A stretch of DNA of 64,000 bases from an uncultured Anaerolineae bacterium. Its GTDB lineage: Bacteria > Chloroflexota > Anaerolineae > JAADDB01. The stretch is from NCBI GenBank assembly GCA_964402285.1, contig CAYOAZ010000010.1, positions 8,357-72,356 of the forward strand, given 5' to 3'. The notes under the pieces are model-generated. The model had not been told where the DNA came from. It saw only the letters and a list, made by a program, of their open reading frames with translations, and did not search any database. The translations under genes were made by a program, and so were the position numbers. Below are positions 24,346 to 64,000 of this stretch, piece after piece; position 1 is the first letter of the stretch; each line of letters opens with the position of its first letter.

Positions 24346-25707
24346 ATGACTACTAAAATCTGGAAGTTCGTCGCCATTCTGGTGGCAGTCGCTCTCGTGG
24401 GGGTTCTCGTCCCCATGAGTGGTTTGGCCGATGTTGCTGAACCTGATCAACCCGATTTAGCCCTACTCCGGGGGATGATTGAAACCATGCCGGAGGATGG
24501 GTACGTGGGGACTTGGCAGGTGGGAGGAATTCCCGTTCAGGTGGATGAGAACACGTTTGTGAGTGACCGCGTTGGGACTCCTACCCAGGGAAGTTGGGTG
24601 AAAGTCATTGGCGCACCCGATGGAAACGGAGGCGTGAACGCGGAGTGGATTAAGGTTATCGATCCTATGACCTTCCCGAGTCTGCTCGGACAAGTGGATT
24701 CGGTGGCGGATACGGCCATGTCGGTTGCGGGTGTGGCCATGCAAGTAAACCAGGACACGCTGATGGTCGGAAACATCCAGCAGGGAACCTATGCTCGTGT
24801 CCTCTATGAGGAACAGGCGGACGGCACCCTTATGGCCGTGCAGGTGCGGGAAATGACCCCTGATGGATTGCCGGTGCCAACTGTCACTGCTACCCCGGTC
24901 CGTGTTCGCGTCGTGTCCTTTAAGGGGACTGTGCAGGAGATTCCGGACGGCCGCATAGGTACGTGGCGCATTGGGGATAAGGACGTGTTGGTCACAGCCA
25001 ATACGTGGATCGATGAACACAAGGGTCCTGCTACCGAAGGCGCGTTGGTGAAGGTGTTAAGCCTGCAGAACGATGCCGAGGACCTCGTGGCCATTCGGAT
25101 TGTGGTCGAGCGAAGCGCTGTGGATGTCCAAATGCCTTACACCCACCTGACTGGCGTTATTGAAGCCCTGCCCGCGGATGGGCTTCAGGGAACCTGGGTT
25201 GTAAGCGGGCATAACGTACAGGTTACCGCTAATACCCTGGTGGATGCTCGTCGAGGAACGCCTGAGGTAGGCGACATCGCCCATGTTGTTGGGTACGCGG
25301 CCGCAAACAACGAGATCGTTGCGACCCGCATCACCGTGGTCAAACATCAGCAGATGCCAGTACCCACGGCTACGCCCAGCATGACACCGCAGCCGCCTCA
25401 TCCAACACACACGCCGCAGCCGCCTCATCCGACGCATACACCGCAGCCACCTATGCCAACACACACGCCGCAGCCGCCTCACCCGACGCACACACCGCAG
25501 CCACCTATGCCGACGCATACGCCGCAGCCGCCTCACCCGACCCATACACCGCAGCCACCTATGCCGACGCATACGCCGCAGCCGCCTATGCCAACACACA
25601 CGCCGCAACCGCCTATGCCGACGCACACACCGCAGCCGCCTCACCCAACCCATACACCGCAGCCGCCCCATCCGACGCACACACCGCAGCCGCCTGCAAT
25701 GCCGTAA
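24346..25707 (+). CDS. Secreted DUF5666-repeat protein with C-terminal His/Met-Pro tandem repeats
   Basis: Signal peptide, then four modules of the type G.(I/V)E..P.....G.W.V.G..V.V...T.....G....G..V.V. RBS aggaggt. Confidence 0.8.
   Translation: MTTKIWKFVAILVAVALVGVLVPMSGLADVAEPDQPDLALLRGMIETMPEDGYVGTWQVGGIPVQVDENTFVSDRVGTPTQGSWVKVIGAPDGNGGVNAEWIKVIDPMTFPSLLGQVDSVADTAMSVAGVAMQVNQDTLMVGNIQQGTYARVLYEEQADGTLMAVQVREMTPDGLPVPTVTATPVRVRVVSFKGTVQEIPDGRIGTWRIGDKDVLVTANTWIDEHKGPATEGALVKVLSLQNDAEDLVAIRIVVERSAVDVQMPYTHLTGVIEALPADGLQGTWVVSGHNVQVTANTLVDARRGTPEVGDIAHVVGYAAANNEIVATRITVVKHQQMPVPTATPSMTPQPPHPTHTPQPPHPTHTPQPPMPTHTPQPPHPTHTPQPPMPTHTPQPPHPTHTPQPPMPTHTPQPPMPTHTPQPPMPTHTPQPPHPTHTPQPPHPTHTPQPPAMP
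25384..25704 (+). repeat. 27-bp in-frame tandem repeat encoding TPQPP(H/M)PTH, 11 full copies plus 1 partial
   Basis: Units of the type acaccgcagccgcctcatccaacacac with synonymous variation. Confidence 0.95.
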
Positions 25708-44709: not shown

Positions 44710-45434
44710 GATTCGCGAATGGATCGCCAGAGCAAGTAGACGGCTCCGGCTAAACCGGCCAAGCCAATTATAAGGAGTCCTATGCCGCGAACTAACGCCC
44801 CCGTGTTAATAGGTTCCGGTGTAGGGGTGGGCGTCCACGTGGGAGACGGGGTCGGCGGTATTGGCGAGGGGGTGAAGGTCGGCGTGGGGGTGGGAGAGGG
44901 GGGAAGTGGTGTAGATGTGGCCGTGGCTGTCGCGGTGGCCGTGGCTGTCGGTGTAGCCGTTGCTGTGGCCGTTGGGGTGAGGGTAGGCGTGGGGGTGGGT
45001 GTTTCGGTGGGGGTGAGGGTGGGCGTGGGTGTTGTAGTCGCTGTCAACGTCGCGGTGATGCTCTGAGTAGGCGTTGTGGTCGGTGTTTGGGTGGGGGTGG
45101 GTGTTGGCGTGGGCGGACGCGGTGTTGGCGGTGGTGTGGGGGTGGGCGTGGGCGGACGCGGGGTTGGCGTGGGAGGAATGGGCGTCGGTGTAGGTGTCGG
45201 CGTGGGGGGGACGGGCGTAGGAGTTGGTGTGGGCGGCGCAGGCGTGGGTGTCGGCGTGGGAGCCGGTGTGGGTGTCGCCGTGGGTGGTTGCGAAGGGGGC
45301 GGCGGTGGTGGTGGATGCAGTGGCCGTTGCACCAGGTCCGCGAGGGCGGGATGGGTTGGTAGGAGAACGCCCAAGGTGATAGCGGCTAATAATAAGGTTG
45401 TTTTAGCCGTCCACAAGAGAAATTCCTTACGCAT
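44703..45434 (-). CDS. Mucin-like Pro/Thr-rich exported protein with C-terminal membrane anchor
   Basis: Signal peptide (PALA-D), a long P/T/A low-complexity tract, PEPINTG, then TM and WRSIRESW. Overlaps the methyltransferase start. Confidence 0.75.
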
Positions 45435-57384: not shown

Positions 57385-58161
57385 ATGTTGTTAACCGTGG
57401 ATATTGGAAACAGCGAAGTTACTCTGGGTGTCTATACTGACTCTCAATGGCAAGCCCGTTGGCGATTACGAACGGTGGTTCATAGGACACCCGATGAATA
57501 CGCGTTGCTATTGAAGGGACTTTTTCGAGAGGCAGGCATTCCCCTTGAAAGAGTAAGATATGTGGGCTTAGCCAGTGTCGTTCCTCCGGTGACGGATACG
57601 TTCGTAGATGTGATTCAACGACATTTGCGTGCTGAATTGCTCGTGGTGCGTCCAGGCGTTCGTACTGGATTGCGTATTCGGGCTGACAACCCTGCAGAGG
57701 TGGGTGCGGACCTCATTGTTAACGCTGTAGCTGCATATGAACGATTTAAAGATGCGTGCATCATTGTGAGTTTGGGGACTGCAACCGTGTTTACCGCGGT
57801 CTCGGCTGGACGGGATTTCTTGGGAGCGGCTATTGCTCCAGGATTGCGTATGGCTGCTCGTGCTCTTTCGGAGCAGACAGCTCAATTACCGGGTATTCAA
57901 CTCGCTGCTCCGCCCGTAGTTATTGGTCGCAACACGGTTCACGCTATGCAGAGCGGCTTGGTGTGGGGGTATGTAGCTATGGTGGAGGGGATGGTGGCTC
58001 GTTTTCGGAAAGAGATGCAGAGGGAGGCGAACGTCATTGCCACGGGAGGGTTGGCTCACTTAATTGCACCTCACACGTCAGTGATTGACGTTGTAGATCC
58101 ATGGTTGACTCTTGAAGGACTGCGCATATTGGTGGAACGTAATCTCCTTTCTGGTCGCTAA
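57385..58161 (+). CDS. coaX: Type III pantothenate kinase
   Basis: LTVDIGNS, SVVP, VGADLIVN, SLGTAT, GRNTVHAMQSG, ATGG, LTLEGL. Confidence 0.96.
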   Translation: MLLTVDIGNSEVTLGVYTDSQWQARWRLRTVVHRTPDEYALLLKGLFREAGIPLERVRYVGLASVVPPVTDTFVDVIQRHLRAELLVVRPGVRTGLRIRADNPAEVGADLIVNAVAAYERFKDACIIVSLGTATVFTAVSAGRDFLGAAIAPGLRMAARALSEQTAQLPGIQLAAPPVVIGRNTVHAMQSGLVWGYVAMVEGMVARFRKEMQREANVIATGGLAHLIAPHTSVIDVVDPWLTLEGLRILVERNLLSGR

Positions 58162-58200
58162 AAACCAACAAGGCCCCTTCCTCGCTAAGGAAGGGGCCTT
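58141..58200 (+). repeat. 60-bp direct repeat, copy 1 (coaX last 7 codons plus terminator hairpin)
   Basis: AATCTCCTTTCTGGTCGCTAAAAACCAACAAGGCCCCTTCCTCGCTAAGGAAGGGGCCTT, identical to 63757-63816. Confidence 0.97.
58170..58200 (-). terminator. Terminator hairpin within the repeat
   Basis: 13-bp stem AAGGCCCCTTCCT/AGGAAGGGGCCTT with GTTGGTTTTT after it on the minus strand. Confidence 0.8.
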
Positions 58201-58314
58201 CCTCCAGTTTGGCCTTCCCATCCCACCAGACCAATCATAAAAAGCCAGAGTCCAGGGGGCGTCTCCTGTGCCTACTATGAGACACAGGAGACGAACTTAA
58301 AACGAACCTAATGG

Positions 58315-61300
58315 TTACTGAATGTTCCGGAAATCTTCTTGGTATTGGACGGCGATTGGCTGTGGGTGAATTCGTGACAGATTTATTAATTTCGCCTGTA
58401 CTACTCGACGCCATTGGTAAGTTTTGGTTTCTTGGTCGTAGTCCTCGCAAGTGAGCAAGGTGACCCAAGATTCATTCGTGTTCTCAAGCACGCTACTATC
58501 ATTTGGCGCGACCCGGAAGGAACGCTTGACCTCGTAAATGTACCATTGATTCCGGGTTTGGATGAAGATGAGATCCCCCGGACGTAAAGTGTTGAGTTTG
58601 GCGAAGGGACCAGGGAGCCCGGAGGCCAAAGTTACGTGACCGGCCAGGACCGTGTTCCCCCTGTGCGTGGGGAAGGCTGTCCCTTCCAACCAGCCGATTT
58701 GCGTCCAGAGCCAGTCCACATTCCACGAGTCCTTTTGTTTTCGGACTCGGAAGATGGGAGCATGTACATTTAGTTTAGGAATCTCCAGCCAGAAATCGGA
58801 CGCAGGCTGTTTTTTATCTGGCCGCATTTGTTGCGGCAGGGATTCCGCGGGGGTGTAACCCGTTTTAGGTAGTGTAATCCCTTCCGATGGCGAAGGTGTT
58901 TCTTTCTGTGTGTTCTTATTTACACTTGCCACAGACGTAATAGGCATTCCAATTGCCACATTTGAATCACGGATATCGACTGCTCCGTCCCCATTGGAAT
59001 CCCACTGTCCGGAGGTCTGATTGGTTAGAACTCCTAGGTTAGAATCGGCAACCTTGACTCGGAAGGTAATGACTACCTCATTGTGTGCAGATTCCTCGGT
59101 AAAGGCACCTGCATCTGGCCCGATGAATCCAATCCACACCACTTGTCGGGCGTTTTTGTCATAGGCGCACACATAGGTAACTGATGAGCCCCTTGCCTCG
59201 CAGTGGAGGCTCCCCTCAATGAACTCTGTACCTTCTTGCACTGGATCGGTGATATGTACCCGCAATGGTACATAATTACGAGCGTTGATCCACACTTGGC
59301 GCCATTCTACAATGGGCCACGCATCCGCCATCCCCACCTTTTTGACGGCCGGTGGATCCAGTGGTGGTGCGGGTGGTGGGGGGGGAGGTGGCGCGGCCGT
59401 GGGTGTTGGCGTAGGCGGCACGGCCGTGGGTGTCGACGTAGGCGGCGCGGCCGTGGGTGTCGGCGTAGGTGGCACGGCCGTGGGTGTTGGCGTAGGCGGC
59501 ACGGCCGTGGGTGTCGGTGTAGGTGGCGCGGCCGTGGGTGTCGGCGTAGGCGGCGCGGCCGTGGGTGTCGACGTAGGCGGCGCGGCCGTGGGTGTCGACG
59601 TAGGCGGCACGGCCGTGGGTGTCGACGTAGGTGGCACGGCCGTGGGTGTCGGCGTAGGCGGCACGGCCGTGGGTGTTGGCGTAGGTGGCACGGCCGTGGG
59701 TGTTGGCGTAGGTGGCACGGCCGTCGGTGTCGGCGTAGGCGGCACGGCCGTGGGTGTCGGCGTACTTGTTGGTGTTGGTGTGTTTGTGGGTGTTGAAGTA
59801 GGAGTGAACGTAGGCGTAGGTGTGTGCACTGGTACTAATCCAAAGTGGTGATATACGTCATGTTGGCATGTGGCTACCAGATTAGCATGTTGTGGGTTCG
59901 GACTAGTTACTCGATATCCGCTTGGCGGGAGTACTGTGATTTGATAGGAGCCCAAAGGAATACCGCCGACCTGCCACCAACCATTCGCGTTGCTGACGGC
60001 CGTGCGTTGTACAGGGCCAGAGATTTGAACGTTCACATTGGGGATGCCAGGTTCCACACCATACTGGTATGTTCCGTCTCCATTTAGATCCTGGAAGATT
60101 ACGCCACCTAACGAAGTGAAACAGGGGGTTGGTGTAGGCGTGTTGGTAGCCGTTGGGGATGGCGTGGGCGTTTCGGTAGGTGTAGGGGTATCAGTTGCGG
60201 TGGGGGATGGTGTAGGCGTTTCGGTGGGTGTCGGAGTTGGTGTAGGGGTTAGGGTTGGTGTCGCACACGGTGATATGGTCACTGGATGGTCTTCAATTTC
60301 CCCTTTTCCTTTGGTGCCTGTGTCGTCGTCCGCAGTAAGATTTTGATCGCTGAGGCGTAAGCGTAAGTATGTAAGCCCCGCCGTCATTCCGTTAGGCAAA
60401 GAACTCCAGGTAAGGACGACTTGAGCATTATTGGTTCCATCCGCTACTGTTACGGAGGTGAACTCTTCGCTGTCAAAGACGCCGTTTTGGTTGAAGTCGA
60501 TCCACCCTGCAAGGACTGCTGACGCTCCACTACGGTTTGTTACTGTAACGGTAATGCTATAAGAACTGGCACAGGTGAGGATAGAATCAAGCGAAATCGG
60601 GCCATCTTCGTCATCTACGCCGTTGTTGTCGTCACCATCTGCATTGGTGGAGTATTGACTATCGTTTTCACTGTCTGGTGCATTAGATCCTAAGTACAGG
60701 GTTGAGTCGAGAAGATGGCCTGCGTCTCCGTAGGATTTCGGCGCGTCACCATGATCTACTGGTACTGCGTGGAAGCCAAAGTCAAAGGAGAGATCATCCT
60801 GGGTGTCCGGGAAGTTATGAATGGCACCTGGGGTATCCTGGTTGCCGTCTTCTCCGGTCGTGAGAGCAATGGGAGAGGGAATGGAGAATTCTGGACCTTT
60901 CACAGGTGTGCCGGCTCCACCAGGTTGGGAACCATCGGAATCCTTATTGTCATCGCTCCCCTGGTTGGGAGAGACGGCGAGGGGTTTATCCGATGGTGGT
61001 GTAGGGATTTGAATCTGGTAGGTGCCAGGTATAAGGCCACAGAAGGAATAGACTCCGTTCGTGTTGGTGGAGTTGGTGTAAATGCGGTCATCACCGACGG
61101 CCGAAGTATCTGAGGGTTGAGTCTCAATAGTCCCATTTGGTCCGGCCCATGCGAGACGGACAGATACATTGGCAATACCAGTATCACTGGCGTCCTGGAG
61201 GTTGGGGGAGGAGCCGGTGTCGTCATTCCAGACGTAATTACCTACGCAAGCCAAAGGTTGCCAGTAGTCTTCTACTTCTCCGTCATTGGCTGTACCTGTC

Positions 61301-63036
61301 CAGCCGGAGAGTGTGTCGGTGGTTAGGCGGAAGCGCATATGGGTTTCCCCGCCATCAAACGTGGCGGTGGCGGGGACGTCGAAGCAGTAAGTGTTTGCAA
61401 AGGGGCCCCCGTTCGGTATGGAAACCCGCCCATTGGCAAAATTGCCGCCATTAAGCGCTTCAGACGTGTCGAAAGTGCCATCGCCATTGAAGTCTATCCA
61501 AGCGTAAAGGTTGGCGTTGGAAGAGAGGTTATTGACACCAGTGACTCGAATACACGCTTGGCTTCCCGGGATAAGGGGAGTAATTAGCTGGACTCCGTCT
61601 TCGTCATCCCCTGGAGAGGAGCAGGTACCAACAGTCGTGGGGGGCACAGAGTTGGATCCTGCATTATCGTCTCCTCCGTTAGTGTCAGCACCAGCGTGAG
61701 CGTCTGGTTTGCCGTTGGTTTCTGTATCTATACAGTTACCCAAATAAAGGTCATCCGTAAGTTTATGTCGGGCTCCTTCTCCTTCGCCGTTGTTGTTTGT
61801 TGCATCTGTGGCAAAGGTATCGGGCAGGTCTCCCCAATCGTATAGTGTAGGTGTATAGTGAAAACGATTGATGGTGGATCCCGAGCCGGTTAAATACACG
61901 TATCCGCGCGTTACGTAAAGGCCGTGGGTGTTATAAATAGGCGGGTTGGCATTTGGAGACCAGGTAGTACGTTCGGCTGTAACAGCAGTAACGGAGCCGG
62001 TATCACTTGTGGAGTTCACAGAGAGCCCGTTCAGTTGGGTCATATTCTTCCAGGCAATGGCTACGTCCGTTTCGTTGACGTAGCCGATGCGAGCGGAGAG
62101 AACCCCCACCGTGACACTTTGGCCTCCGGTGTGTGTGGGGGCCCAGGAAGGATTGACGACCATGTTGGGTAGATCTAGAGCTGCGAGGCCGTTGCGATTA
62201 TATCCTCCCACGTTGGTAAAATCACCCAACATGTAAAGTCGAATACCCGGATTGGTAGAGAGTGAGTACACGGCGTTGTTAACAGAAGGTGCTGCAACTA
62301 GAGAATTGGTGGCGGGATTCAGGATAGCAAAGTAATTAGCGGATCCCAATAAACCCTGGAACGTCCCACCGATAAAGAGGCGGTCAACAGCACTATCAAA
62401 CTCCAAGGCGTAAACTGTCGACGCATTACTGGATAGGAGAAGAGGAAAACTGGAGGAATTAGGGGTGATACCAGAAATATCGTACTGGCGATAACCGAAG
62501 TTTCCTCCCACATGTAAGCGTCCTCGCGCACGATCCACAGCGAGAGCATGAACATCATTCGTTAAGCCCGGATCCCAGGGCAAGACATTTCCAGTATTTA
62601 AATCAATGGCTACCAGATAGCGATGACTGGCACCGTCAACTGTTGCGAAACGTCCCCCAACAAATAAATAGTGAGAGTAGTATTCCAACGATGTACCCCA
62701 ATCCCAACCGCTAATTCCATTTCCAAAAGAATACGAGCGTCCTATGGGAGTACAGGTTGTCGTGTCAAGTTCTGTCAGACTATCATAGTTATATTGGACA
62801 CTATTTTTCGATAATTTGTTAAATGCTCCTGTGATAAAGAAACGTCCATTAGGCAACTGGAGTAAATCTATTGTGCCATAGTCAGTTGTGGGACAATCGC
62901 CCACAGGATTGTTTGGGAGTGTACTGGTAACTACAGCAGGTGCTGCCCAATTGTACGGGTTGGAACCTTCTAGTATGGCAAATATTACATACACCAGAAT
63001 TAAAAGAATTACTATCTTACTAAGTTTAACTCTCAT
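58315..63036 (-). CDS. 1573-aa surface protein: beta-propeller-like repeats, GEVED x2, SdrD-B-like x2, Pro/Thr stalk, DUF11-like domain, LPKTG, C-terminal sortase domain
   Basis: Signal peptide. Repeats VYALEFD...LFIGGTF. GEVED motifs (AWIDFNGDG...MRFRL...GEVEDY; GWIDFNQNG...LRLRL...GEIEDH). VGNYVWND...TNGVYSF and GGVIFQDLNGDG. LPKTG at 58858-58872, then LEIPKL...NTVLAGH...TLLTC...RRVV. Confidence 0.9.
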   Translation of the reverse strand: MRVKLSKIVILLILVYVIFAILEGSNPYNWAAPAVVTSTLPNNPVGDCPTTDYGTIDLLQLPNGRFFITGAFNKLSKNSVQYNYDSLTELDTTTCTPIGRSYSFGNGISGWDWGTSLEYYSHYLFVGGRFATVDGASHRYLVAIDLNTGNVLPWDPGLTNDVHALAVDRARGRLHVGGNFGYRQYDISGITPNSSSFPLLLSSNASTVYALEFDSAVDRLFIGGTFQGLLGSANYFAILNPATNSLVAAPSVNNAVYSLSTNPGIRLYMLGDFTNVGGYNRNGLAALDLPNMVVNPSWAPTHTGGQSVTVGVLSARIGYVNETDVAIAWKNMTQLNGLSVNSTSDTGSVTAVTAERTTWSPNANPPIYNTHGLYVTRGYVYLTGSGSTINRFHYTPTLYDWGDLPDTFATDATNNNGEGEGARHKLTDDLYLGNCIDTETNGKPDAHAGADTNGGDDNAGSNSVPPTTVGTCSSPGDDEDGVQLITPLIPGSQACIRVTGVNNLSSNANLYAWIDFNGDGTFDTSEALNGGNFANGRVSIPNGGPFANTYCFDVPATATFDGGETHMRFRLTTDTLSGWTGTANDGEVEDYWQPLACVGNYVWNDDTGSSPNLQDASDTGIANVSVRLAWAGPNGTIETQPSDTSAVGDDRIYTNSTNTNGVYSFCGLIPGTYQIQIPTPPSDKPLAVSPNQGSDDNKDSDGSQPGGAGTPVKGPEFSIPSPIALTTGEDGNQDTPGAIHNFPDTQDDLSFDFGFHAVPVDHGDAPKSYGDAGHLLDSTLYLGSNAPDSENDSQYSTNADGDDNNGVDDEDGPISLDSILTCASSYSITVTVTNRSGASAVLAGWIDFNQNGVFDSEEFTSVTVADGTNNAQVVLTWSSLPNGMTAGLTYLRLRLSDQNLTADDDTGTKGKGEIEDHPVTISPCATPTLTPTPTPTPTETPTPSPTATDTPTPTETPTPSPTATNTPTPTPCFTSLGGVIFQDLNGDGTYQYGVEPGIPNVNVQISGPVQRTAVSNANGWWQVGGIPLGSYQITVLPPSGYRVTSPNPQHANLVATCQHDVYHHFGLVPVHTPTPTFTPTSTPTNTPTPTSTPTPTAVPPTPTPTAVPPTPTPTAVPPTPTPTAVPPTPTPTAVPPTSTPTAVPPTSTPTAAPPTSTPTAAPPTPTPTAAPPTPTPTAVPPTPTPTAVPPTPTPTAAPPTSTPTAVPPTPTPTAAPPPPPPPAPPLDPPAVKKVGMADAWPIVEWRQVWINARNYVPLRVHITDPVQEGTEFIEGSLHCEARGSSVTYVCAYDKNARQVVWIGFIGPDAGAFTEESAHNEVVITFRVKVADSNLGVLTNQTSGQWDSNGDGAVDIRDSNVAIGMPITSVASVNKNTQKETPSPSEGITLPKTGYTPAESLPQQMRPDKKQPASDFWLEIPKLNVHAPIFRVRKQKDSWNVDWLWTQIGWLEGTAFPTHRGNTVLAGHVTLASGLPGPFAKLNTLRPGDLIFIQTRNQWYIYEVKRSFRVAPNDSSVLENTNESWVTLLTCEDYDQETKTYQWRRVVQAKLINLSRIHPQPIAVQYQEDFRNIQ
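59387..59764 (-). repeat. 27-bp in-frame tandem repeat x14 encoding T(P/S)TPTA(V/A)PP
   Basis: Plus-strand units of the type ggcggcacggccgtgggtgtcggcgta. Confidence 0.95.
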
Positions 63037-63704
63037 GGTTGACTCCTTTTTTGGTATATGGATATTGTATATAAAATAGAAGACAAACCAACATTAAAGT
63101 TGTCTGTTTTGCAAAGGGTCCAAGGTATCGGTCATAAGGCAAAGGTCACACTGCGAATTTGTGGGCCGTATTAGAAGCGTTTACTCGGTGTATGAATCTG
63201 TTGCGTTTGTGCAAAGATATGTGCGTAGGACAAATTTTAATTTTTAAGGTTTTCTGTCAAGGGACGGGGATGCCGCGTCTTGAGGGGCGTGTCAACACCG
63301 CGGAATCCACACCAAGACACTGACTCCCGAAGGCAGACGCAAATCGTGGACCGAACCGGAGGCGGAGGCGATGGTCATCGCTCAAATTAGCCTCAATTCG
63401 GTCAGGCGCAGGCGTTTTGGCCAGGCCCTTCTCCTCTTCTTTTAGGGTGTTGAGAAGGGCCTCTGTATTTTTCTACTCTTGCCTGTTGTGCAACGAGTCT
63501 AATTATACTGAACAAATTGGACTCTGTTATATTCACCAACAGTACTACTAATCAGTGCACCATACTCTTGAAATATATTACTCTATATTAACAATATGGC
63601 TGGCTCGATCATCCCGGGAGTTCCCAATAGGCAATTCTCCGCTCGCGATAGTACATGGTACTCGACCGAGCAGGAGGGCCCTCCAATCGCTCTTCAGCGC
63701 TCAA

Positions 63705-63726
63705 TGGTGGAACATTGGTGGAACAT
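63705..63726 (+). repeat. Tandem 11-bp direct repeat TGGTGGAACAT x2 (integrase arm-site-like)
   Basis: Exact tandem, ending 30 bp before repeat copy 2. Confidence 0.7.
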
Positions 63727-63756
63727 TCATTTCGCCGACGCCTGTGAGTAAAGTGC

Positions 63757-63816
63757 AATCTCCTTTCTGGTCGCTAAAAACCAACAAGGCCCCTTCCTCG
63801 CTAAGGAAGGGGCCTT
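63757..63816 (+). repeat. 60-bp direct repeat, copy 2
   Basis: Exact match to 58141-58200. The flanking bases diverge on both sides. Confidence 0.97.
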
Positions 63817-63852
63817 GTGCTGCCGGCATGAGGGCTGGATAGGTGGTGTGTA

Positions 63853-63999
63853 TTACTTGACTACACCTGTCTCCATGCGCTCGTTATAGATATTCTGCAG
63901 TTCGTAGAGCATCTGCTGGAGTTCGAAGAAGCCATGCCAGTGTGCCCAGTCCGGGCCTCCCATGGCCGCACCTTGGCGGGCACGTCGTCCAGTGTGGTG
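63853..63999 (-). CDS. 3' end of a HAO/octaheme-like multiheme cytochrome c (partial)
   Basis: Manual translation HHTGRRARQGAAMGGPDWAHWHGFFELQQMLYELQNIYNERMETGVVK* matches the HHxGRRARxGAAMxGPDyxHWHG motif of this family. Not in the ORF track. Confidence 0.75.
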   Translation of the reverse strand, partial: HHTGRRARQGAAMGGPDWAHWHGFFELQQMLYELQNIYNERMETGVVK

Positions 64000-64000
64000 C

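Follow-up and report, generated by a model that had tools for sequence, protein, structure and literature searches.

A 5.6-kb segment bounded by an exact 60-bp direct repeat between coaX and an octahaem cytochrome operon in an uncultured Anaerolineae bacterium

In this study, we analysed a stretch of 64,000 nt (hereafter the window) from contig CAYOAZ010000010.1 of an uncultured Anaerolineae bacterium (Chloroflexota), and found near its right end a 5.6-kb insertion relative to a sister species, lying between coaX and the convergent operon of an octahaem cytochrome, in which the overlap of the coaX end and the cytochrome terminator has been duplicated. The initial annotation of this DNA had taken the segment, which carries one giant surface-protein gene, for a minimal element mobilised in trans or a swappable surface-protein cassette at an attachment (att) site. 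Our analysis favours another history, and we put at roughly 0.5 the probability that the duplication was made by the insertion event itself, at the terminator hairpin, and that the segment has since become fixed and no longer moves. The most likely reading is an ordinary insertion scar, by now fixed: a small islet bounded by direct repeats in a poorly studied phylum.

The duplicated block and the empty site

An exact 60-bp direct repeat had been reported in the initial annotation, and positions 58141-58200 and 63757-63816 are indeed identical, with a start-to-start spacing of 5616. A search of the window for the 60-mer, AATCTCCTTTCTGGTCGCTAAAAACCAACAAGGCCCCTTCCTCGCTAAGGAAGGGGCCTT, that tolerated up to 3 mismatches returned this pair alone (0 copies expected, 100 shuffles), which is also the sole long non-tandem repeat within the 64 kb. 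The features at the two ends of the insertion are as follows.

57385..58161, plus strand: coaX, type III pantothenate kinase, intact (PF03309, E = 2.4e-66); ends inside copy 1
58128..58138, plus strand: ATTGGTGGAAC in coaX, 2 nt upstream of copy 1; recurs near copy 2
58141..58200, no strand: direct repeat copy 1 (coaX end, T-tract and hairpin)
58160..58200, minus strand: intrinsic terminator, used now by the giant gene (hairpin 58170-58200, T-tract 58160-58169; scan and fold)
63704..63756, plus strand: complex right junction, with ATGGTGGAAC and ATTGGTGGAAC in tandem, coaX-derived, then 32 nt of filler
63757..63816, no strand: direct repeat copy 2, an exact match to copy 1
63776..63818, minus strand: intrinsic terminator at the end of the cytochrome operon (16-bp stem, counting the ancestral AC/GT on its flanks; scan and fold)
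63853..64000, minus strand: 3' end of the gene for a multihaem cytochrome of octahaem type, 460 aa (PF13447; the rest from extension contigs)

Copy 1 holds six sense codons of coaX (NLLSGR) and the TAA stop, so that the seven final codons counted earlier are right if the stop is included and one too many as sense codons. The remainder of the repeat is a hairpin, its stem of 13 bp closed by a loop of 5 nt (a 13-5-13 or 12-7-12 palindrome), and the stop codon of coaX overlaps its T-tract. Read on the minus strand, TTGGTTTTTAG comes after the hairpin, a terminator scan called both copies as intrinsic terminators, and the minus-strand RNA of copy 1 folds at -31 kcal/mol (z = -3.8) and that of copy 2 at -34.5 kcal/mol (z = -4.8), which agrees with the 13-bp terminator stem already described in the initial annotation. 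Both copies have the GC-rich hairpin and the U-tract on the transcribed strand that define a Rho-independent terminator. No T-run follows the hairpin on the plus strand, thus it is essentially a terminator of minus-strand genes. The stem behind the cytochrome gene is conserved or compensated in the sister-species contig L003 and in L095-L097, the copy 2 stem itself being found behind the cytochrome gene in the latter three loci. An Rfam search of 57-64 kb gave a single sub-threshold chance match, on the hairpin, and no dispersed family of the stem was found in the window.

The empty site was identified in L003, a contig of a metagenome-assembled genome of the sister species, where coaX, one hairpin and the cytochrome operon adjoin. 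This is exactly the junction expected when one copy and the intervening DNA are removed from the window, as the initial annotation had predicted. Collinearity of L003 and the window extends over at least 9 kb to the left and at least 6 kb to the right, and the L003 alignments reach 58200 on the left and start at 63757 on the right, overlapping by 57 nt, which is the duplicated block. CoaX shares 87% amino-acid identity with its L003 orthologue and the cytochrome 96%, the DNA being 72-79% identical. The single copy in L003 differs from the window 60-mer at about 13/60 positions, including compensatory changes in the stem. Since copy 1 and copy 2 show no difference between them, yet both depart from L003 at about 13/60 positions, the duplicate was made from this lineage's own sequence, and by this comparison the duplication would thus have arisen after much of the divergence from L003. 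The perfect identity had also been taken as a sign of recent or ongoing activity; zero differences in 60 bp, however, only bound the divergence below about 5% ((1-d)^60 = 0.05 at d of about 0.049), and given this bound and a sister species about 75% identical in DNA, the insertion event may be old.

Several assemblies carry the same structure. L083, an independent MEGAHIT k141 contig of 85.6 kb, contains cytochrome, copy 2, giant gene, copy 1 and coaX with both 60-mers exact, and differs from the window only within a 27-nt tandem array inside the giant gene, being otherwise 100% identical. L084, a contig from the Joint Genome Institute (JGI), spans the right junction and extends 13 kb beyond, and two Logan k=31 contigs with identical coaX end exactly 30 nt into copy 1, as de Bruijn graph behaviour predicts for a genuine repeat in two contexts. 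A repeat length near common k-mer sizes and the use of metagenome data might invite a chimeric join at the shared 60-mer, but L083 spans both copies and their junctions and L084 and the two Logan samples agree with the filled structure, so misassembly, which the initial annotation had named as a possible refutation, is excluded by independent assemblies and an artefact is hardly credible. All five datasets of this species show the filled site, and neither a same-species empty site nor alternative cargo was present among the assemblies found. The comparison of this locus across genomes, proposed in the initial annotation, yielded an empty site in the sister species and no different cargo.

The right junction is more complex than a plain duplication. 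The 11-mer ATTGGTGGAAC occurs at 58128 and 63714 only (window plus the 13-kb extension), and its junction copy agrees with the coaX of the window lineage and not with ATTGGTGGAGC of L003. The tandem coaX relic of 10+11 nt was equalled in score by 1/2000 local shuffles, the test being post hoc, and the 32 nt of filler before copy 2 match nothing. Judged from these letters, the duplication was probably at least 73 bp originally, and the right junction reads as a repair-type or template-switch scar, with slippage and filler, and not as a product of conservative site-specific recombination.

Origin of the duplication

The inserted segment of 5,556 bp is one complete transcription unit, and the search for a machinery that could have moved it was negative. 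No recombinase, integrase or transposase was found in the insert, in the 58 kb to its left or in about 8 kb to its right. Across the window, 40 further open reading frames (ORFs) encode ordinary housekeeping or envelope functions, none an integrase or transposase; to the right of copy 2 follow the cytochrome, a NapC/NirT protein, a response regulator, a histidine kinase, a sulfotransferase and an AMP-binding enzyme, again with no recombinase. The statement of the initial annotation that the cassette encodes no recombinase holds, its sole ORF being the adhesin and the upstream pieces giving no Pfam match; the further copies of the 60-mer and the integrases that it had suggested searching for were absent from the 64-kb window and the extension. 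The insert ends carry no terminal inverted repeats.

Beyond the locus, the exact 60-mer had no match in the viral contigs of IMG/VR, and a 43-nt core of it was found in JGI metagenomes at this locus only. The insert, searched by blastn against PLSDB plasmids and INPHARED phages, gave low-complexity PT repeat matches only, and no cognate element with the same att was present among the viral contigs, the JGI metagenomes, the plasmid and phage collections or the loci retrieved for comparison. When 80 other coaX loci were screened for 16-mer duplications around the coaX stop, a coaX 3' duplication was found in 0/80; a lone 16-mer match in L012 proved to be an unrelated intergenic repeat. No recurrent integrase lay beside coaX in 40 Anaerolineae, and the cargo was not found in another genomic context.

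Nothing in the composition of the insert points to a foreign source. While the tetranucleotide signature of the insert is atypical (r = 0.47 vs 0.85 +/- 0.04), a foreign origin on this ground was discounted, as the gene has an odd amino-acid composition and a host-like synonymous codon usage (z = -0.4 to -0.9, within the host range, with the first 3 kb host-like). Because of this codon usage and the occurrence of 27-nt PT-linker arrays in other host genes, the gene looks native to this or a close lineage. The C-terminal 960 nt (58315-59275), encoding a sortase module, deviate from host genes in codon usage (z = -3.45), which hints at a separate origin for this module.

Taken together, the comparisons show that the 5,556-bp segment entered once, in an ancestor of the species, between convergent coaX and the octahaem cytochrome operon, and that the insertion duplicated the 60 bp in which the last codons of coaX overlap the cytochrome terminator. 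With this overlap duplicated, coaX has remained intact and each minus-strand gene ends at its own terminator. We propose that the repeats are a target duplication left by the insertion and not working att sites. The likely route would be a staggered break, or a template switch during replication, at the GC-rich hairpin, after which the ends were filled in and one junction acquired filler DNA and underwent slippage; the giant gene would derive from this lineage or from one close to it. That both copies carry own-lineage sequence follows directly from a target duplication, and nothing searched held a further copy of the 60-mer, of the hairpin or of the cargo, which also speaks for this origin. 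Several points weigh against it. We know of no documentation of 60-73-bp target duplications as a routine outcome of bacterial break repair, and perfect repeats of such size that restore a gene 3' end are a signature of site-specific integration. The inspection for recombinases covered 64 kb plus about 13 kb of the genome, and no donor locus of the segment was identified. The argument is further weakened by the post hoc nature of the 11-mer observation, by the single outgroup that keeps coaX-cytochrome adjacency, with which polarity is not strongly established, and by same-species data that are nearly clonal (100% identical outside the tandem array), with which fixation is not strongly established.

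As the main alternative, the segment might be a decayed site-specific integrative element resembling a cis-mobilizable element (CIME), in which the integrase and all genes but the adhesin were lost and attL and attR kept, the ancestral attP having mimicked the coaX 3' end and terminator and served a tyrosine or serine integrase; we hold this tentatively, as a possible though not a probable origin. The perfect 60-bp repeats, one of them restoring the 3' end of a protein gene, and the empty site in a relative are as expected from such an element, the 13-5-13 (or 12-7-12) palindrome could double as a recombinase core site, the far side of the terminator is a synteny breakpoint in the clade, and the definition of CIMEs, which keep attL and attR and have lost the genes for integration and transfer, fits (PMC5704250). 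However, neither integrase nor excisionase nor pseudogene trace occurs in the 0.83 kb of non-coding insert or in the 58 kb + 8 kb of flanks, attP would have to match 60 bp of a fast-evolving, species-specific sequence that is 13/60 off the sister species, a cognate element or second att copy was not found, codon usage is host-like, and conservative site-specific recombination would not be expected to leave the extra 11-mer and the filler. It is improbable, on the other hand, that gene and repeats are ancestral and that L003 lost the segment by recombination between the repeats. While deletion between 60-bp repeats is mechanistically easy, and only one outgroup keeps the coaX-cytochrome adjacency so that polarity is not independently fixed, two copies that are identical yet about 13/60 off L003 would demand gene conversion without interruption, the repeats would still have to arise by another mechanism, and no orthologue of the giant gene was found in any relative.

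The proposal closest to the initial annotation is an active integrase-less cassette, in which a recombinase encoded elsewhere would act on the repeats as functional att sites and the gene would excise, reinsert or be swapped between strains. What favours it is purely structural, namely the perfect repeats, the palindromic core and a single self-contained cargo that has a promoter of its own and takes its terminator from the site. The filled site in all five datasets, with no alternative cargo, other context or extra att copy, and the lack of a recombinase nearby argue against it, and the perfect 60-bp identity is uninformative; we consider it quite improbable, and give equally little credence to the idea that the terminator palindrome and its coaX-proximal flank form the docking att site of a surface-protein swapping system between convergent genes. 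Mobilisation in trans thus finds no support in the form of a nearby recombinase, an extra 60-mer or a cognate element, nor does a swappable cassette in the form of alternative cargo or a same-species empty site. To our knowledge, integrase-less cassettes served in trans are poorly documented outside CIMEs of Firmicutes and unknown in Chloroflexota, and active att sites here, if true, would matter much more than a scar.

Other routes found no support. An insertion sequence (IS) or transposon was discarded, there being no transposase, no terminal inverted repeats and a duplication of 60 bp rather than 2-15 bp. Casposon-like elements and group II introns were dismissed, none of their defining parts having been found. 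Integrative mobile elements exploiting Xer (IMEX), which are flanked by dif-like XerC/XerD sites at the replication terminus, seem improbable for the same reason. A dif-type site has the consensus layout 11-6-11; the repeat is a 13-5-13 hairpin joined to coding sequence, and cumulative GC skew climbs monotonically from 50 to 64 kb, showing no inversion.

The cargo gene, its sortase module and the flanking genes

The initial annotation had described a single giant surface-protein gene as the cargo, and such a gene is the sole long ORF between the copies, ending at the duplicated terminator. The inner features of the insert are listed below.

58201..58314, minus strand: 3' untranslated tail of the giant gene at the left inner end, 114 nt; matches nothing elsewhere
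58315..63036, minus strand: cargo gene, encoding a secreted protein of 1573 aa
58318..59358, minus strand: C-terminal module, aa 1227-1573 (DUF11-like domain, LPKTG at 58858-58872, sortase domain)
59386..59764, minus strand: 27-nt tandem array, 14 copies, encoding a TPTAVPPTP-type linker inside the cargo gene
63037..63703, minus strand: non-coding region upstream of the giant gene; no recognisable gene remnant, no Rfam family

From N to C terminus the protein has a signal or transmembrane segment, a DUF5122-like beta-propeller region, two GEVED and two SdrD_B domains, together with PT-rich linkers and a C-terminal DUF11-like-LPKTG-sortase module. Non-coding DNA amounts to 720 nt upstream (to copy 2) and the 114-nt tail. 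The former contains a promoter-like site at 63502-63530 (10/12 matches) and showed no gene remnants when ten stop-free six-frame pieces from 63037-63760 were compared with Pfam; the latter has, by sequence and fold, its own 11-bp hairpin at 58260-58291 with no adjoining T-run. The 27-nt array is five units shorter in the independent assembly L083, which reflects either length polymorphism or assembly collapse. Similar 27-nt or PT-rich arrays occur in two other genes of the window (25384-25695 and 44860-45300).

Among 5.8 billion proteins, the one close relative of the cargo is P0001 (97%), the same gene of the same organism with a different repeat number. No orthologue was found for the N-terminal 605 aa of the cargo, nor for the giant gene in relatives, and the nearest GEVED/SdrD_B homologues (P0002, P0003 and P0004) lie in arrays of similar giant genes, where flanks and repeats were uninformative.

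The last 347 aa of the giant protein recur as a module in dozens of Anaerolineae metagenome proteins at 34-69% identity, composed of a DUF11-like domain starting FDPPxGxK, a near-invariant LPxTGFxP, a linker of about 30 aa and a sortase domain. In the cargo the motif reads LPKTGYTP (aa 1389-1396), and the sortase residues are His1467, Cys1530 and Arg1543/1544, with His, Cys and Arg invariant across the module alignment. The C-terminus belongs to the sortase superfamily by hidden Markov models (PF04203, 91.7 bits; TIGR01076, 45.6 bits vs a cut-off of 39.35), by the His-Cys-Arg triad and by a predicted beta-barrel fold. An AlphaFold2 model of the module has a mean predicted local distance difference test (pLDDT) score of 80, in which ITLPKTGYTP forms an island of confidence (76) between disordered linkers at 37 and 45, and in a Foldseek search the modelled catalytic domain resembled class C, A and E sortases down to E of about 1e-10. 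The domain falls under every class-specific NCBIfam cut-off, so none of the classes A-F was assigned, and no membrane anchor follows the LPxTG motif.

The best match of the module, P0095 (69%), proved to be the C-terminus of another such giant protein with PT linkers, encoded by a GC-rich relative (L088), thus the combination of adhesin and module is a family and not a one-off fusion. As a reasonable hypothesis, the sortase may act in cis or process itself, attaching or polymerising the adhesin of which it is part. Nothing relevant on LPxTG-sortase fusions in Chloroflexota was found in the literature searched. This fused module, kept in many Anaerolineae proteins, is a by-product of our analysis more noteworthy than the insertion itself, and merits biochemical attention.

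On the right, the window holds just 148 nt of the cytochrome gene, the remainder being read from extension contigs, and the operon of histidine kinase, response regulator, NapC/NirT protein and cytochrome runs on past the window, with NapC/NirT preceding the cytochrome gene. In L089-L097 the cytochrome operon, the motif GCCCTCATGCCGGCAG and the terminator hairpin are all retained, and past the T-tract the neighbours differ, being MTHFR/UbiA, a LysM protein or another convergent gene. The terminator is hence part of the cytochrome operon, and beyond it, in L089-L097 and at L003 9375-9450, lies a synteny breakpoint and a rearrangement hotspot of the clade. A simple repeat TAACGAGTGACGAGTAACGAGTAAT...AACGATTAACGATTGACGATTAA lies about 200-270 nt after the cytochrome stop in L089-L094, and one of this type also occurs at the contig end of L088 (1985-2020), downstream of the homologue of the giant gene; that GC-rich organism probably has it as an intergenic repeat in dispersed copies.

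On the other side, the gene that comes after coaX on its own strand in other Anaerolineae is mostly coaBC (DFP flavoprotein; 17/41 loci, L004-L041), and in this species and L003 it is convergent with the cytochrome operon instead. Between the window and L003, the cytochrome is more conserved than the flanking coaX and ECF-S genes (96% vs 87% amino-acid identity). About 4.5-9.6 kb past the right end of the window, L084 8300-13400 is a region of about 5 kb with no ORF above 150 aa, in which no Rfam family at gathering score and no repeats were found; a PT-linker ORF begins near L084 13480 and continues off the locus.

Comparison with known systems

As an insertion scar, the segment would illustrate how a new gene can be placed between convergent genes without damage, all three genes being properly terminated. 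Sortase-anchored LPXTG proteins and pilin-specific sortases share with the cargo the sortase fold and the His-Cys-Arg triad, and in the anchored proteins, as here, LPxTG follows a surface-protein body. Unlike these systems, the cargo unites LPxTG and sortase in one polypeptide, has no anchor after the motif and belongs to none of the classes A-F.

CIMEs, known from the ICESt1/ICESt3 family of Streptococcus, keep attL and attR and have lost the genes for integration and transfer (PMC5704250). Like them, the insert has perfect direct repeats, one over the 3' end of a protein gene, and carries cargo only, with no integration or transfer genes. However, it is without a known cognate integrative and conjugative element (ICE) or integrative and mobilizable element (IME), decayed mobility genes or tandem accretion, its repeat is species-specific and non-conserved, and its right junction contains extra duplicated target and filler. 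Transposons and IS elements are likewise bracketed by a direct target duplication, which is of 2-15 bp and not of 60 bp as in this case, and the transposase and terminal inverted repeats are lacking here.

Tyrosine-integrase islands at gene 3' ends include e14 and phage 21 at icd and the islands at tRNA genes. While no integrase lies inside the present segment, which is 5.6 kb with one gene, and its target is not reused in 80 coaX loci, it shares with these islands the att-like repeats, the duplicated 3' end of a target gene that stays intact and the empty site in a relative. In the minimal mobile elements of Neisseria, cassettes are exchanged by transformation and homologous recombination between conserved flanking genes. 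Theirs are without target duplication and are seen with alternative cassettes, whereas the segment described here has a target duplication and no alternative cargo; the two nevertheless have in common a recombinase-less, single-function cassette between two conserved genes.

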